64,000 bases of DNA from a virus (IMGVR_UViG_3300017743_005089:36971-100970); one strand, 5' to 3'. Counted from the stretch's first letter, positions 2,640 to 22,467 are shown. Numbers and translations: made by a program. Notes: generated from the letters alone by a model not told the origin.

Positions 2640-3281
2640 ATGCTTGGATATGTAAAAAACAGTGTAAATAAAATAAAATATTTCTACGAATCTAATTCAT
2701 TAAAAATATTAAACTATTTAGATAAGGAGCTAGCCTACGAAGATTCCTTAAAGTATTACACGGAACAATCTCACATAAATAAATTAAACATGAATTATAA
2801 ATCTTACATTTTTTCTCAAGACATATGCAGCTTAAGTTCAATGCCAGAACCTTCCATAGAAGAGATAATAAGGATAAATAAAAAAATAACCGATCACACA
2901 TGGGGCGTAATTCTAGAGTCAGAAAAAATAAATGATATAAACATTTATATAGCTCAAATGAACAAAGTACAAATAAACGCAAGAAAGTCTAATTTTTTTG
3001 TCGTAACAGATTGTGAAGATGTATTATTAAAATTAAATGATGTTTTTAACTGGATGGGGAAGTTCCATTATATAGTTCCAAACACCTACAATGATAATAT
3101 TGACTTGGAGTATCGCCCCAGCATTAACTTTCACTGCCTCAAACATTTAGACAAGCATATATCTACCCCAAATTCTAAATATATGAAAATGCTTAAATCT
3201 ATAGGCGGCAAACAAGTAACAGTTCCAAATCCGTCAAGGGTGTTCTGTTTTAATTCAAAAAAATTGGTTCCAGGAAAATGA
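2640..3281 (+). CDS. Hypothetical protein, possibly degenerate fucosyltransferase-like
   Basis: FFVVTD resembles the F(V/L)ATD motif of GT-B fucosyltransferases; first gene of the island. Confidence 0.45.
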   Translation: MLGYVKNSVNKIKYFYESNSLKILNYLDKELAYEDSLKYYTEQSHINKLNMNYKSYIFSQDICSLSSMPEPSIEEIIRINKKITDHTWGVILESEKINDINIYIAQMNKVQINARKSNFFVVTDCEDVLLKLNDVFNWMGKFHYIVPNTYNDNIDLEYRPSINFHCLKHLDKHISTPNSKYMKMLKSIGGKQVTVPNPSRVFCFNSKKLVPGK

Positions 3282-4207
3282 AAAGGATATCGTACGTTTT
3301 AGTTTCCAGGAATGACAGGTACAACGGGGATTCTGTTGGTAGGTGTACTAATACTATCAATCACGCATGTGAGATCATTCAAAAAAACAACGTCGCAGAA
3401 GAGTCCGAAGTTGTCTTGGTAGATTGGTGTTCTAAAAAAGAACCCCTAAAAGATGCTATAAAGCATAGGTTATCCCCTCAATGCAAAGATGTTTTAAAGA
3501 TTGTTACAGTGCCACCAGACATCGCCGACAAACATCAGGGTGATTCGCCTTTTTCTGAAGTGCATGCAATGAATGTTGGTTTTAGACAAATGAGCGGCAA
3601 ACACTTTGCCAGAATTGATCAAGACACTTTGATTGGTCAAAGATTTATGGATTGGTTTTATAAAGAGTATGAGGTAAAGGATTATGGCTGGCCCTGGCCT
3701 AGGGCATCATTTTGCAGTAGAAGAAATTTGAGTGAAGATCAATCCCACCATTCAGTTTTTCGAGATTATGTATATGACCAAGCCTTATCCAAACAAGTAG
3801 AAATATGCCATGAGCACAACCATTACAGTAGATTAATGCCCAACGAGCAAATATACCCTTTTTACGGGGGGGCTGTTGGGGTAATGATGGTTGAAAAGGA
3901 TTGCTACTTAGAGCATAAAGGCTTCAACGAAAGTTTAGTTTACATGAATAGTATGGACACAGAATTCATGAATAGAATTGCTCAGAAAGAAGACGTATAC
4001 AATTTATGCCTATCCATTGATGCGGATTTTTATCACCAACACCACGACAGAGGGGACGGCGCCTCAAACGACACAACTCAACCACATGCCCAACAAGAAG
4101 GGGTTAGAAAAACCAACGAGTTAGATGTTAGAAATAAAATGATAGAAAACCCAAACCCAGACAACTGGGGCTTAATTGACGAAAATTTAGATGTAATTTT
4201 ACTATGA
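3278..4207 (+). CDS. GT-A fold glycosyltransferase (GT2/GT7C-like)
   Basis: ISYVLVSRND, VVLVDW, AMNVG, RIDQD (DxD), GFNE, YHQHH. Confidence 0.75.
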   Translation: MKRISYVLVSRNDRYNGDSVGRCTNTINHACEIIQKNNVAEESEVVLVDWCSKKEPLKDAIKHRLSPQCKDVLKIVTVPPDIADKHQGDSPFSEVHAMNVGFRQMSGKHFARIDQDTLIGQRFMDWFYKEYEVKDYGWPWPRASFCSRRNLSEDQSHHSVFRDYVYDQALSKQVEICHEHNHYSRLMPNEQIYPFYGGAVGVMMVEKDCYLEHKGFNESLVYMNSMDTEFMNRIAQKEDVYNLCLSIDADFYHQHHDRGDGASNDTTQPHAQQEGVRKTNELDVRNKMIENPNPDNWGLIDENLDVILL

Positions 4208-5055
4208 AAAACGTAGTTTATATAATAAATAATCTCCCATCGGACACCGATTTCGCGAACCCTGGTTACAAAAATGTAGCATGGGTCCCTCACTGCTTAA
4301 AGTCCTTGGAATCCTATTGTGATAAAATTAACGCAGATCTAAAGATCATATCCTCTAAAGATTTTCCAGCCTTTGCAGAGATAAATGATTACAATTTTAG
4401 CTTTTATCAAAAAAGCACTTTCATAAAGGTTTTAATGCTTCATGAATTCATGAAGACGGATTATGATAAATTTGCGCTTCTCGACCTGGACATGGTTGTA
4501 AGCAAGGATGCTGAAGATATTTTTGAAAGATACAAGGATGACCATTTTGTAATGCAGTATGGATTCAATGAAGCCGTAGTAAAAAAGAATGAAATATTTC
4601 TAAAGCAGTATTTAAAATCAATCCCTGCTGATGAATCTGTATACAGGTACAATGAAAAAACAAAAAGAAACATGCCTAAGTACAATTTAAACTTAGGATG
4701 CTATATAATGAGTAAAAAAATTGTTAGCAAGTTGACTAAAGTATTACCAGACCAGTATAGTTTCGTCTCTTTCTTAAAGGATAACAATTTAATAGACAAC
4801 CCCGTGTTAGAAGTTTTCGGAGAAAGAAAAGATTTTATAGATCAAGATTTATACGGTTTCGCTTATTCAAAAACAGACGCCCTAGATTACCACAAGCCCA
4901 TGGATTGGGTTTGGAATGCAAACTATCAGGCCTGCTTCCAAAAAGGAGATCAAAACAAAGATTTCAACCTGTGTCACCTTTGCGGCGAAGACGGCAAGCA
5001 GTTTCTTTTAGATAATTTAAATAACCCAGAAGTTATTTCTAGAATCGATGTATAG
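4204..5055 (+). CDS. GT-A glycosyltransferase (GT8/GT34-like)
   Basis: LLDLDMVV (DxD), NLGCYI, DQD, WNA, CHLCG. Confidence 0.7.
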   Translation: MKNVVYIINNLPSDTDFANPGYKNVAWVPHCLKSLESYCDKINADLKIISSKDFPAFAEINDYNFSFYQKSTFIKVLMLHEFMKTDYDKFALLDLDMVVSKDAEDIFERYKDDHFVMQYGFNEAVVKKNEIFLKQYLKSIPADESVYRYNEKTKRNMPKYNLNLGCYIMSKKIVSKLTKVLPDQYSFVSFLKDNNLIDNPVLEVFGERKDFIDQDLYGFAYSKTDALDYHKPMDWVWNANYQACFQKGDQNKDFNLCHLCGEDGKQFLLDNLNNPEVISRIDV

Positions 5056-20906: not shown

Positions 20907-20908
20907 AT

Positions 20909-21478
20909 ATGGAACCTTTACCTTACGAATTTGAACTAGATGATTCAAGATTATCTTTACTTGAAAAAATTAAACCTGGAGACGTTTGTGTAGAGATTGG
21001 AACCTTTAAAGGTGATTTCGCCGACTTTATCTTAAAAATGGAACCATCAAAGCTTCATTTGATTGATCCCTGGATTAGCATTATGGATGTTCCAGCTAGA
21101 TGGCATGCAATTCCTCAAGATCAAATGGATGAAATAAAATCTCAAGTTTACTCTAGATTTGCCTCAGATGCCAGGGTACAAATAATTGAAAAATATTCTA
21201 TAGATGGCCTGGATGATTTTGACGATGACTCTATCGACTGGATATACCTTGACGCAAATCATTCTTATTCTTTTATAGAACAGGATTTAACAAATTGGTG
21301 GGATAAGCTAAAGCCAGGAGGTTTTTTATGTGGGAATGCATATCAAGATGACGAGGCGCAAATTAAGTTGCTTGATTTTGGGATAATACCTGCTGTAGAT
21401 TCTTTTCTTGAAGATCTCTTTGAAGAGATTGCAAATTTTGAAACTTTTAAATACCAATTTATCTTAACAAAAAAATGA
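20909..21478 (+). CDS. Class I SAM methyltransferase (Methyltransf_24-like), paralogue of 19776
   Basis: VEIGTFKG, IDPW, DWIYLDANHSY, LKPGGFLCG. Confidence 0.85.
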   Translation: MEPLPYEFELDDSRLSLLEKIKPGDVCVEIGTFKGDFADFILKMEPSKLHLIDPWISIMDVPARWHAIPQDQMDEIKSQVYSRFASDARVQIIEKYSIDGLDDFDDDSIDWIYLDANHSYSFIEQDLTNWWDKLKPGGFLCGNAYQDDEAQIKLLDFGIIPAVDSFLEDLFEEIANFETFKYQFILTKK

Positions 21479-22467
21479 AAATATTAGTTGGTGGCGCAGG
21501 CGGTTTTATCGCTGGATACTTAGTTAAAGATTTATTGGGCCAAGGACATGAAGTTGTTGCTGCTGATATTAAACCTTTTGATCAATGGTATCAGACTTTC
21601 CCAGAAGCAGAAAATCATGCTGACTGCAATTTACAACAAAAAGAAAACTGCTATAATTTAAGTGTTGGTGTTGACAGAACCTACAACCTTGCCTGCAATA
21701 TGGGAGGCATGGGTTTTGTAGAAAACAATCAGGCGCTTTGCATGGAGAATGTTTTAATTCAAACTCACATAATGATGGCTGCACGAGACAATGGCGTCAA
21801 AGAAGTTCTTTATAGTTCAACAGCCTGTGTCTATCCAGCTGCAATTCAGTCTGAAATCAAAGATGAATCATCTCAGGCTTTAAAAGAATCCGATGTATTT
21901 CCCGCTAATCCAGATGATGGTTATGGTTGGGAAAAATTGTTCAGTGAATTAATTACTTATTATTACGGAAAAGATTTTGAGATTGATTCTCGAACTTGCC
22001 GTTATCACAATGTATATGGGCCCTTTGGCACATGGCGAGGAGGTCGTGAAAAAGCTCCTGCCGCAATCTGCCGTAAAGTTATTGAAGCAAAAATGAGCGG
22101 TAATCATGAGATTGAAATTTGGGGTGACGGAGAGCAGACCCGTTCATTTATGTTTATTGATGATTGTATTACTGGCATGGAATTGATGTGGGAAAAAGGA
22201 GACTCTCGACCATTAAATCTTGGTAGTGATCGCATGGTATCTATCAATCAATTAGTTGATATTATTGAAGGTATAGGAGGATTAAAATTGAAGAGAAACT
22301 ACAATCTTGATGCACCCCAAGGAGTTCGCGGCAGAAATAGCGATAATACCATGATAAAAGAGGTTTTAGACTGGGCTCCATCAATCTCTTTAGAAGAAGG
22401 TTTAGAAAAAACATATGCATGGATCTATAATCAAATGCAAAACTGCAGTGAATCTTCAGGGTATTAA
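21475..22467 (+). CDS. GDP-mannose 3',5'-epimerase-like extended SDR
   Basis: GAGGFIA, LACNMGGMGF, SSTACVYP, YGWEK, GGREKAPAA, QGVRGRNSDN. Confidence 0.85.
   Translation: MKILVGGAGGFIAGYLVKDLLGQGHEVVAADIKPFDQWYQTFPEAENHADCNLQQKENCYNLSVGVDRTYNLACNMGGMGFVENNQALCMENVLIQTHIMMAARDNGVKEVLYSSTACVYPAAIQSEIKDESSQALKESDVFPANPDDGYGWEKLFSELITYYYGKDFEIDSRTCRYHNVYGPFGTWRGGREKAPAAICRKVIEAKMSGNHEIEIWGDGEQTRSFMFIDDCITGMELMWEKGDSRPLNLGSDRMVSINQLVDIIEGIGGLKLKRNYNLDAPQGVRGRNSDNTMIKEVLDWAPSISLEEGLEKTYAWIYNQMQNCSESSGY

Follow-up and report, generated by a model that had tools for sequence, protein, structure and literature searches.

Lytic marine phages of the myovirus type, such as P-SSM2, S-SSM7, S-SCSM1 and pelagimyophages, are known to carry large gene clusters in which nucleotide-sugar enzymes are combined with many glycosyltransferases (GTs). 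[quoted passage not shown] These fucose/L-galactose GT clusters of cultured cyanophages (PMC9602691, PMC1079782), comparable to the one considered here, were missed by a preliminary description of the present locus. The authors of the cyanophage and pelagiphage papers favour modification of the host surface, which is itself only proposed (PMC1079782, PMC7029224, PMC9602691). In the mycobacteriophages Che8, Corndog and Myrna, virion O-glycosylation was found (Freeman et al. 2023, cited in PMC12619734): soluble GTs with methyltransferases decorate capsid and tail-tube proteins, and the few genes involved lie within the structural operon, adjoining their substrates. No other experimentally shown virion glycosylation of a phage was found cited in the literature searched.

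The giant-virus systems for the capsid glycans of chlorovirus PBCV-1 and the fibril glycans of Megavirinae share with the locus considered here GTs that are virus-encoded, soluble and free of ER/Golgi-type anchors, Gmd and fucose synthesis from viral genes, O-methylated sugars and clade-variable clusters. To our knowledge, none of the giant-virus glycans described is sulfated. Bacterial loci for sulfated exopolysaccharides, such as that for cyanobacterial synechan, contain several GTs and several sulfotransferases, with sulfation thought to proceed on the cytoplasmic side; a priming transferase, Wzx/Wzy and genes for polysaccharide export are included as well.

The window analysed here is a stretch of 64,000 nt (IMGVR_UViG_3300017743_005089:36971-100970) from an uncultured large marine tailed phage, and its positions 2640-22467 form an island of 26 ORFs (~20 kb). 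As a large set of genes for nucleotide-sugar enzymes and GTs in a lytic marine phage of the myovirus type, the island resembles the known "LPS gene" clusters, with sulfation genes in addition: five sulfotransferases and a candidate PAPS synthase are encoded, and no sulfotransferase was found described for the cyanophage clusters in the available text of the corresponding papers (PMC9602691, PMC1079782). Sulfation of such a kind is not described for any phage in the literature searched. Unlike T4-like cyanophages, this phage has a DnaE-type replicase, whose best match to any cultured phage is only ~30%, and belongs to another lineage; its GME is just 41-43% identical to those of cyanophages, and its GT17 enzyme 27% identical to those of Synechococcus phages. 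In contrast to the mycobacteriophage systems, at least 26 genes lie here between nucleotide-metabolism and replication genes, and both sulfation and dedicated donor synthesis are present. It differs from giant viruses in being a virus of bacteria and in having a tail and a replisome of bacterial type, and from synechan-type loci in that no Wzx/Wzy, export or priming genes were found in it or in complete relatives.

Phage Identity and Gene Layout

The contig encodes tail and baseplate proteins, DnaE, DnaB, UvsX and a tmRNA, in agreement with the bacterial-type replisome and tmRNA reported earlier. Synteny across related phages was examined, and at least 20 related but independent viral contigs, the longest reaching 214 kb, carry the same island with the same flanks. 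The contig is therefore that of a real phage, neither cellular nor chimeric, which settles a doubt raised in the preliminary description. Upstream of the island lie ribonucleotide reductase and a DnaJ-like gene; downstream lie UvsX, DnaB and primase.

All 26 ORFs are on the + strand, and 18 of the 25 junctions overlap; the sole intergenic gap longer than 20 nt is that of 67 nt at 10158-10226. The preliminary picture of 26 mostly abutting or overlapping genes thus holds, as do its counts of five sulfotransferases (four PF03567 matches and one Stf0-like by ESM Atlas), two SAM methyltransferases (Methyltransf_24 at 19776 and 20909) and one NDP-sugar epimerase, now resolved to GME. Its estimate of about 15 GT-like genes was close: nine are firm, with matches above Pfam cut-offs (GT23/NodZ, GT92, GT32, GT77, GT90, GT2, GT17, GT69 and GT31), and five GT-A-like ones (at 3278, 4204, 10960, 14731 and 18300) have no such support and are tentative. 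By any test, lineage-restricted ORFans at 2640, 11640 and 19073 and a GHKL ATPase gene at 12119 are not glyco-enzymes. Judged from these predicted functions, the reading of the island as a phage pathway for a sulfated, methylated complex glycan is well supported.

Glycosyltransferases and Other Island Proteins

The NodZ/GT23-like fucosyltransferase (6521..7408; PF05830, E 3e-15) is 83-92% identical in most relatives and 62-70% in the remainder, and the GT77-type nucleotide-sugar transferase (Nucleotid_trans, 10226..10972; PF03407, E 1e-15) occurs in all of them with 79-86% identity. The GT90 enzyme (13812..14738; PF05686, E 1e-25) is present in four of the five genomes searched; neither it nor the NodZ-like gene gave a match among cultured phages. 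A GT2 enzyme with a GT7-type C-terminal region (15374..16114; PF00535, E 2e-19, and PF02709, E 5e-9) and a GT31 galactosyltransferase-like protein (Galactosyl_T, 17656..18303; PF01762, E 1e-6) with a KIDDD motif were also found. The other firm GTs are variable members of the island: a GT92-like enzyme (8044..8931; PF01697, 30.7 bits, cut-off 23), found in some relatives only; a GT32-type DXD glycosyltransferase (Gly_transf_sug, 8915..9565; PF04488, E 1e-14; YIDTD motif) with a close orthologue in a single relative; the GT17 enzyme (16132..16932; PF04724, E 2e-24); and a GT69/CAP59-like mannosyltransferase (16916..17656; PF11735, 30.9 bits, cut-off 28.8), whose orthologue was found in one relative only. 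All the families named earlier (GT17, 31, 32, 69, 77, 90 and 92) were matched above the Pfam cut-offs.

Two of the tentative GTs stand next to each other. The probable GT-A (GT2-like) glycosyltransferase at 3278..4207 has no Pfam match; PF10111 appears in 1 of 63 homologue clusters, the top PDB match of its profile is the GT2 domain of chondroitin synthase (E 0.035), and D114-Q-D116 is invariant. Its AF2 model (pLDDT 41) was unusable. For its neighbour (4204..5055), a probable GT-A fold is suggested by the AF2 model (pLDDT 58, pTM 0.61) and by the DxD motif in LLDLDMVV. The top 50 chains in a wide VIA-align search, with Z not above 5.3, were mostly glycosyltransferases or other nucleotide-sugar enzymes by entry title, which we read as the GT-A fold, and weak matches included PBCV-1 A064R and Mimivirus R655; a Foldseek search, one of the checks proposed earlier, gave nothing significant. 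A variable, tentatively GT2-like protein with an LTDSD motif (10960..11652) matches PF00535 below threshold (E 0.019). The tentative GT-A-like protein at 14731..15390, with a WLEDDWD motif, scores 0.96-0.98 in ESM Atlas to virus-only clusters, in one of which 20% of members carry GT2; its nearest clusters include Nucleocytoviricota. The tentative GT11-like fucosyltransferase (18300..19073; PF01531, E 0.004, below cut-off) has orthologues that are just ~50% identical.

The first gene of the island (2640..3281) encodes a 213-aa protein with no Pfam match, whose homologues in 101 environmental clusters (48-95% identity) are likewise all without Pfam; it is kept in relatives at 65-73%. A 157-aa protein (11640..12113) with no significant family match, kept at 61-82%, is always paired with the adjoining GHKL (MORC/Hsp90-type) ATPase with an acidic tract (12119..13819; PF13589, E 3e-6), which has its own TAGTGTAA element at -16. 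The variable 233-aa protein at 19073..19774 gave no family match and belongs with 50 lineage-restricted clusters, none with Pfam.

Predicted Sulfation, Methylation and Donor Supply

Four Sulfotransfer_2 sulfotransferases (PF03567) are encoded at 5048..5734 (E 1e-13), 7409..8047 (E 4.5e-17), 9562..10158 (E 4e-14) and 20316..20906 (E 1e-14), with 52-63 bits against a cut-off of 22. In all four the PAPS-binding motifs are intact, PKxxG[TS] at residue 14 and RNPxD[RK]xxS at residues 55-74 (PKSAGT and RNPFDRVVS in the first), which we take to be the 5'-PSB and 3'-PB motifs. Each of the five relatives searched has 5-10 Sulfotransfer_2 matches. The Stf0/Sulfotransfer_3-like sulfotransferase (5718..6524) is assigned by ESM Atlas (0.98 to Stf0 and Sulfotransfer_1/3 clusters) and has a P-loop-like ERAGTT motif; it gave no match in Pfam or PDB sequence searches. 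The methyltransferases at 19776..20306 (Methyltransf_24, TylF-like; PF13578, E 1e-16) and 20909..21478 (PF13578, E 2e-14), both of the O-methyltransferase type, are paralogues.

The last gene (21475..22467) has an Epimerase Pfam match, and phmmer against the plant GME structures 8sg0 and 2c59 gave a match over the full length with E 1e-91 (311 bits), the next family being at 1e-25 (92 bits); it is predicted to be a GME that makes GDP-L-galactose. Its identity is 91-92% in G001 and G003 and 81-91% in other relatives. Further glycan genes lie near the island, beyond the 26-gene block, and the pathway runs outside the window, with Gmd, Fcl, an aminotransferase and GT-B enzymes that the preliminary description did not include. 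GDP-L-fucose is the predicted product of Gmd (TIGR01472, E 2e-90) and Fcl (NF047922, E 1e-122), both encoded directly upstream of the window. A fusion of an APS-kinase-like P-loop domain with an HxGH nucleotidyltransferase-like domain (52410..53216, - strand; PF01583, E 4e-12; PF01467, E 8e-6; TIGR00455, E 1e-10) is present in all five genomes, with 84-87% identity in G1 and G3, and is probably the supplier of the sulfate donor PAPS. Taken together, Gmd/Fcl, GME and this conserved fusion suggest that the phage supplies GDP-L-fucose, GDP-L-galactose and probably PAPS.

Membrane, Priming and Export Genes

A scan of 19-residue windows (Kyte-Doolittle mean 1.6) revealed no transmembrane (TM) segments in the island proteins, the maximum being an internal strand of the GT92 enzyme (1.61), so the enzymes appear soluble, as stated before. 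The only multi-TM ORF of the contig (30682-31857) encodes four TM segments and a long coiled coil; in a crude hydropathy scan this conserved ORF was also the only one of its kind above 150 aa in the contig, G1 and G3, apart from one G1 ORF of 4,460 aa with two hydrophobic peaks. No flippase, polymerase or priming transferase, all said before to be absent from the contig, was found in it or in three CheckV-complete relatives. The priming transferase Bac_transf (PF02397) was found in none of five lineage genomes, three of them CheckV-complete (its control matched in 10 of 14), no polytopic WecA/MraY-like ORF was seen in the TM scans of the contig, G1 and G3, and ORF scans of two complete relatives gave no polytopic protein of flippase, polymerase or ABC permease type. 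The term "lipid-carrier-free" used in the preliminary description does not follow from the absence of TM segments, because the GTs of O-antigen synthesis are also soluble, as is usual for lipid-linked bacterial glycans, and the phage could make use of its host's enzymes for priming and export.

Nature of the Acceptor

In our opinion, the island would be the core of a phage-encoded pathway of soluble enzymes that act sequentially in the cytoplasm and give a single large non-repeating glycan, or a small number of them, with a high content of L-fucose or L-galactose and with sulfate and methyl groups. The acceptor would most likely be proteins of the phage's own particle, in the fibres or the head decoration, as in chloroviruses, mimiviruses and mycobacteriophages, whose particles are glycosylated by virus-encoded soluble enzymes. 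We consider this the best explanation, with virion proteins as a tentative best guess that falls slightly short of an even chance. It is supported by the predicted donor enzymes and intact motifs and by the lack of TM segments, Bac_transf and, in the scanned relatives, polytopic proteins. Viral protein glycans are built with one enzyme per linkage, and an O-unit has 3-6 sugars; the many distinct GT families appear nearer to the former. The ends of the island are conserved among relatives and its middle is swapped, with relatives' additions comprising a sulfatase, Glf, a pyruvyltransferase, GT47, GT61 and GT25. The glycan structure is thus expected to vary from strain to strain, and this pattern suggests a product exposed to outside recognition. 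Two points speak against virion proteins as acceptor: the island has ribonucleotide reductase on one side and recombination/replication genes on the other, outside any structural operon, and lipid-linked bacterial glycans also use soluble GTs, for which the host may provide priming and export.

The latter point leads to remodelling of the host envelope, in which a host transferase would prime undecaprenyl-phosphate-linked intermediates as substrates for the phage enzymes, and host flippase, ligase or ABC systems would export the product. The O-antigen, capsule or EPS of the infected cell would thereby be altered, for instance so that other phages are excluded or grazers deterred. This is the interpretation given for the P-SSM2 "LPS genes", the pelagimyophage GT clusters and the S-SCSM1 cluster in the corresponding reports, and the position among early or metabolic-type genes, the normal solubility of O-antigen GTs and the cassette-like variation, similar to that of O-antigen loci, agree with it. 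We nevertheless regard it as rather unlikely. Searches of five genomes gave no priming transferase, and scans of two complete relatives gave no polytopic protein resembling a flippase, polymerase or transporter; ~14 different GT families far exceed the needs of a typical repeat unit, and a foreign sulfated unit of 10-15 sugars would have to satisfy the specificity of host Wzx, Wzy or ligase. Moreover, none of 78 cellular GME loci had island-like GTs or sulfotransferases beside GME. The soluble enzymes and absent carrier genes would also suit a sulfated product set free at lysis, either an unattached oligo- or polysaccharide or a glycolipid, possibly a decoy or anti-adsorption polyanion, or the glycosylation of host cytoplasmic proteins for host takeover. 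The founding member of the Stf0 family sulfates a free disaccharide, and the set of NodZ, sulfotransferase and methyltransferase recalls Nod-factor tailoring; however, no chitin-oligosaccharide synthase, acyltransferase or lipid enzyme was seen in the island, and an intracellular product would hardly account for such marked differences between strains. We consider such acceptors unlikely.

Phage DNA, also named earlier as a possible target, is very unlikely, although phage GTs can hypermodify DNA with glycans, as reported in a preprint (10.1101/2023.12.21.572611), and one relative has a DNA methylase. GTs would have to glycosylate hydroxymethylated bases, and a ThyA-family hydroxymethylase was found in none of five genomes (control matched in 10 of 14); a TET/JBP search gave no match, nor did its control. 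Carbohydrate sulfotransferases, sugar methyltransferases, GME/Fcl and ~14 GT families far exceed known DNA glycans and do not fit DNA chemistry.

Returning to virion proteins, a more specific proposal, improbable in all its details, is that the fibres or head are coated with a strain-variable, fucoidan-like sulfated and methylated L-fucose/L-galactose glycan, for which donors and enzymes would all be phage-encoded. If true, the viruses of prokaryotes would have their first example of a sulfated glycoprotein virion, and such a coat could mimic algal polysaccharides, so that the virion is captured by polysaccharide-foraging marine bacteria or particles. The fibres are indeed S/T/N-rich, as was pointed out before (0.27-0.34 against ~0.19), but this is ordinary for fibres.

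Two further observations count against virion proteins as acceptor: no major capsid protein was found in the relatives, where the control of the Gp23 search also gave no match, and promoter-like sites were not more frequent than by chance. One relative carries both rIIA and rIIB.

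Composition of the Island and Identities of Its Enzymes

Between window positions 2640 and 22467, 26 ORFs were counted, all of them on the plus strand, with 18 of the 25 junctions overlapping and only one gap exceeding 20 nt, and the mostly abutting or overlapping 26-gene block of the preliminary description was thereby recovered. As judged from the sequence, the view that this island represents a pathway for a sulfated, methylated complex glycan is well supported. Nine glycosyltransferases (GTs) pass the curated Pfam cut-offs and belong to the NodZ/GT23, GT92, GT32-type, GT77-type, GT90, GT2, GT17, CAP59/GT69 and GT31 groups. 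Part of this range is familiar chiefly from eukaryotes and giant viruses. Pfam also assigned four genes to Sulfotransfer_2, two to Methyltransf_24 and one to the SDR epimerases, the last two findings corresponding to the two SAM methyltransferases and the NDP-sugar epimerase expected earlier. The gene at 5718 has no Pfam match and was assigned in the ESM Atlas (0.98) to Stf0 and Sulfotransfer_1/3 clusters, many of them viral, so the count of five sulfotransferases holds.

Close to the count of about 15 GT-like genes proposed previously, the nine listed are firm and five more are tentative, namely a GT11-like and a second GT2 enzyme with sub-threshold Pfam matches (E 0.004 and 0.019, respectively) and the genes g02, g03 and g16. 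The product of g02 (3278) is tentatively a GT-A enzyme, having an invariant DQD motif, PF10111 in one homologue cluster and, as the top PDB match of its profile, the GT2 domain of chondroitin synthase (E 0.035); its AF2 model was unusable (pLDDT 41). The same tentative class was given to g03 (4204), whose mediocre AF2 model retrieved nothing significant with Foldseek and, with VIA-align, mostly glycosyltransferases and other nucleotide-sugar enzymes, according to the entry titles, at Z of 5.3 or less. For g16 (14731), assignment to GT-A is no more than a lead. Searching PDB sequences with the unknown ORFs, as single sequences or shallow profiles, was uninformative, and local all-against-all comparison of orthologue alignments with hhalign did not link them to GTs, the sole links being those between sulfotransferase paralogues and between methyltransferase paralogues. 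Genes g01 and g22 are abundant in the environment yet confined to this phage lineage.

A hydropathy scan revealed no segment of transmembrane (TM) grade in any island protein, as had been stated before. Both PAPS-binding motifs are intact in all four Sulfotransfer_2 enzymes and DxD motifs are retained downstream of a hydrophobic strand in the GT-A enzymes; thus, nothing in the catalytic motifs suggests inactivated enzymes.

Predicted Supply of Sugar and Sulfate Donors

The source contig, an IMG/VR viral contig of 100,970 bp in which the window spans 36971–100970, is 72% complete according to CheckV and carries roughly 35–40 glycan-related genes occupying about 35–40 kb, with the genome estimated at ~140 kb. 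Upstream of the window there are a conserved block of minus-strand genes, among them those of GT9-like and GT4-like (GT-B) enzymes, and a variable block encoding GT4, a methyltransferase, Gmd, a DegT/LegC-type aminotransferase, Fcl and a GalE-like SDR. Gmd (7111–8160 in the sequence stretch L006, contig 26111–27160; E 2e-90) and Fcl (L006 12957–13904, contig 31957–32904; E 1e-122) lie 4–11 kb ahead of the window start, being absent within the window and present in the phage. [quoted passage not shown] A single gene of the window (52410–53216) is on the minus strand. It encodes a fusion of an APS-kinase-like P-loop domain with an HxGH nucleotidyltransferase-like domain, which was present in all five genomes searched, is conserved at 84–87% identity in two relatives and is a candidate minimal PAPS synthase, the APS kinase model having matched over only ~85 residues. 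Since these four proteins are encoded, the phage is predicted to make its own GDP-L-fucose and GDP-L-galactose and, plausibly, its own PAPS. The NodZ-like and GT11-like transferases are the predicted users of the GDP-sugars made by the phage.

The Phage, Its Relatives and Its Host

The contig encodes baseplate, minor-tail and tail-fibre proteins, a sheath-related protein, a DnaE-type polymerase, DnaB, primase, UvsX and a ClpA-like ATPase, as well as both RNR subunits and tmRNA. Scanning IMG/VR with GT90 and one sulfotransferase as queries yielded about 20 related contigs with 73–84% identity to these queries, and three of the relatives (213.8, 194.5 and 150.8 kb) are rated complete by CheckV. 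In the 213.8- and 150.8-kb relatives, both examined in full, the order of baseplate genes, island and replication genes is kept, which answers the call for a synteny comparison. Two more members, having the island and the replication genes in the same order, were found inside public MAGs, JAYQMT010000004.1 (210.8 kb, Cellvibrionales) and CAJQLD010000004.1 (Flavobacteriaceae), where their placement is probably a binning artefact. Because the island recurs with conserved flanks in independent phage contigs, the objection that the contig is cellular or chimeric fails.

Against cultured phages, DnaE showed a best identity of only ~30%, and a nucleotide search with the island DNA gave no match. Membership in the 'moraphage' lineage was excluded, moraphages having PolB and the contig phage DnaE. 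Searches of the relatives with PF05065, PF07068 or tblastn of a candidate ORF did not reveal the major capsid protein, the Gp23 control being silent. Hints to the host from MAG binning conflict, as Cellvibrionales and Flavobacteriaceae belong to different phyla, and when 600 genomes from three phyla were queried by BLAST with the phage tmRNA, only the conserved tmRNA ends matched. The nearest cellular GMEs (68–71%) come from Marinimicrobia, Verrucomicrobiota and a Gemmatimonadales MAG, a likeness that is only a lead to the host. The 150.8-kb relative also has rIIA-like and rIIB-like genes (6674–8977 and 9072–10178 of its stretch L050) and a DNA modification methylase (13383–14930 of L048), the syntenic place of which contains no homologue in the present contig.

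Variation of the Island

The conserved parts of the island are a 5' block (g01–g07) and a 3' block with the methyltransferases, a sulfotransferase and GME; g08, g09, g12, g18, g19 and g22 are variably present. In hundreds of environmental relatives, the island is retained with a reshuffled middle, and its product must therefore be important for the fitness of the phage in the sea. In the 150.8-kb relative, it reaches 31 kb and additionally includes a sulfatase, UDP-galactopyranose mutase, polysaccharide pyruvyltransferase, a cytidylyltransferase, GT61, GT47 and GT25-like enzymes and more sulfotransferases. The sulfatase (461 aa; 8801–10186 of stretch L046, 68801–70186 of the genome; PF00884, E 4e-50) has an intact CQPSR (CxPxR) motif and no signal peptide, and its position within the island hints at editing of sulfate patterns.

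The 213.8-kb relative possesses a second glycan island (177.9–189 kb, stretches L059 and L060) with two GT25, one GT2, six or more sulfotransferases and one methyltransferase, starting right after the homologue of window 61287–63110. Since the present contig ends near this gene, its own second island may be missing past the contig end (window 61287–64000). Sulfotransfer_2 matches numbered 5–10 in each of five relatives searched and 4–10 in each of the more remote viral records, one of them a 222-kb phage that has a tail sheath; none of the 14 control genomes had this family.

Possible Acceptors of the Glycan

About 14 different GT families suggest, at the level of sequence, a large non-repeating glycan or several glycans, and by analogy this number would fit better with virus protein glycans than with a short O-unit. 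No priming transferase was found in searches of five lineage genomes, including the three complete ones, and no flippase, polymerase or permease by hydropathy scans, a crude method, of the contig and two complete relatives, consistent with the lack of such proteins noted at the outset. The sole conserved multi-TM protein (window 30682–31857), a 4-TM coiled-coil protein, was rejected as a flippase or polymerase, its three N-terminal and one or two C-terminal TM segments flanking a coiled coil of ~230 residues. In our opinion, the glycan may well decorate the virion, which we put forward tentatively. Candidate acceptors would be the fibre proteins (window 38627–49842), the B-repeat protein (window 23129–24505) and the capsid protein. 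Against the virion as acceptor it counts that the island is situated between nucleotide-metabolism and replication genes, that neither an acceptor nor the capsid protein was found, that soluble GTs serve lipid-linked pathways too, and that a promoter and terminator scan was no richer in sites than shuffled sequences, so no inference on the timing of island expression follows from it.

Remodelling of the host envelope, for which the phage would use priming and export systems of the host, appears rather doubtful, and it is improbable that the pathway yields another soluble product or glycosylates host proteins. DNA would be a most surprising acceptor, no ThyA-type hydroxymethylase having been found in five genomes. 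A TET search gave no match, nor did its control. Should the virion be the acceptor, its particles would bear polyanionic, algal-like glycans with effects on adsorption, aggregation on marine particles, grazing and host recognition, and virus-encoded protein glycosylation, described so far, in the portions of the literature available, for giant viruses and mycobacteriophages, would gain sulfation. With the host envelope as acceptor, this would be the most elaborate known surface conversion driven by a phage. In either case, the island offers enzymology soluble sulfotransferases and rare GTs (GT17, GT90, GT92, GT69 and GT77) in compact form.

Comparison with Known Phage Clusters

According to excerpts of the corresponding papers, large 'LPS gene' clusters are present in T4-like cyanophages of the sea and in pelagimyophages (PMC1079782, PMC7029224), with 24 such genes in P-SSM2 (PMC1079782) and many GTs within the host-recognition region of pelagimyophages (PMC7029224), and S-SCSM1 encodes Gmd, Fcl, GME, NodZ, two other fucosyltransferases and five GTs (PMC9602691). 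Thus, so far as the excerpts go, the part of the island with GTs for fucose and L-galactose represents an already known kind of phage feature, of putative function. In contrast to what they describe, the island belongs to a phage of a different lineage, adds a sulfation arm of five or more sulfotransferases and the candidate PAPS synthase, has sulfatase and pyruvyl options in its relatives, and is set apart by its GT-family range and cassette-like diversification. No description of multi-sulfotransferase glycan islands in phages was found in the full-text literature searched, and absence there is no proof. The island makes the 20-year-old puzzle of the marine phage 'LPS genes' biochemically testable.

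The ATPase g14 and the TAGTGTAA Element

Gene g14 (window 12119–13819) encodes a GHKL (MORC/Hsp90-type) ATPase with an acidic tract of ~60 residues and is paired mid-island with the 157-aa g13 in every relative. It is kept across relatives, yet we cannot tie it to glycan chemistry; its weak Skp1 match (E 0.023) was taken as chance.

The TAGTGTAA element is enriched, with GTGTA present within 40 nt upstream of 12 out of 106 genes at about 2 expected, and in most of these 12 genes (T)AGTGTAA is placed 14–17 nt ahead of the start codon. Its sites include window 12103–12107, 22468–22472, 23113–23117 and 36120–36124, and the genes bearing it include those of the RNR large subunit, g14, a B-repeat protein and the ClpA-like ATPase. 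It was rejected as a marker of the island as 'late', since it precedes metabolic and fibre genes alike and, within the island, only g14. The element may function as a promoter or as a signal for translation. The B-repeat protein (window 23129–24505, 458 aa), beginning ~660 bp downstream of the island and having its own TAGTGTAA element, consists of 34% Ser/Thr/Asn and contains five divergent copies of the InlB B-repeat domain (PF18998, E 4e-56). The protein shows no conservation among relatives and is, from its sequence, a possible surface or decoration protein.
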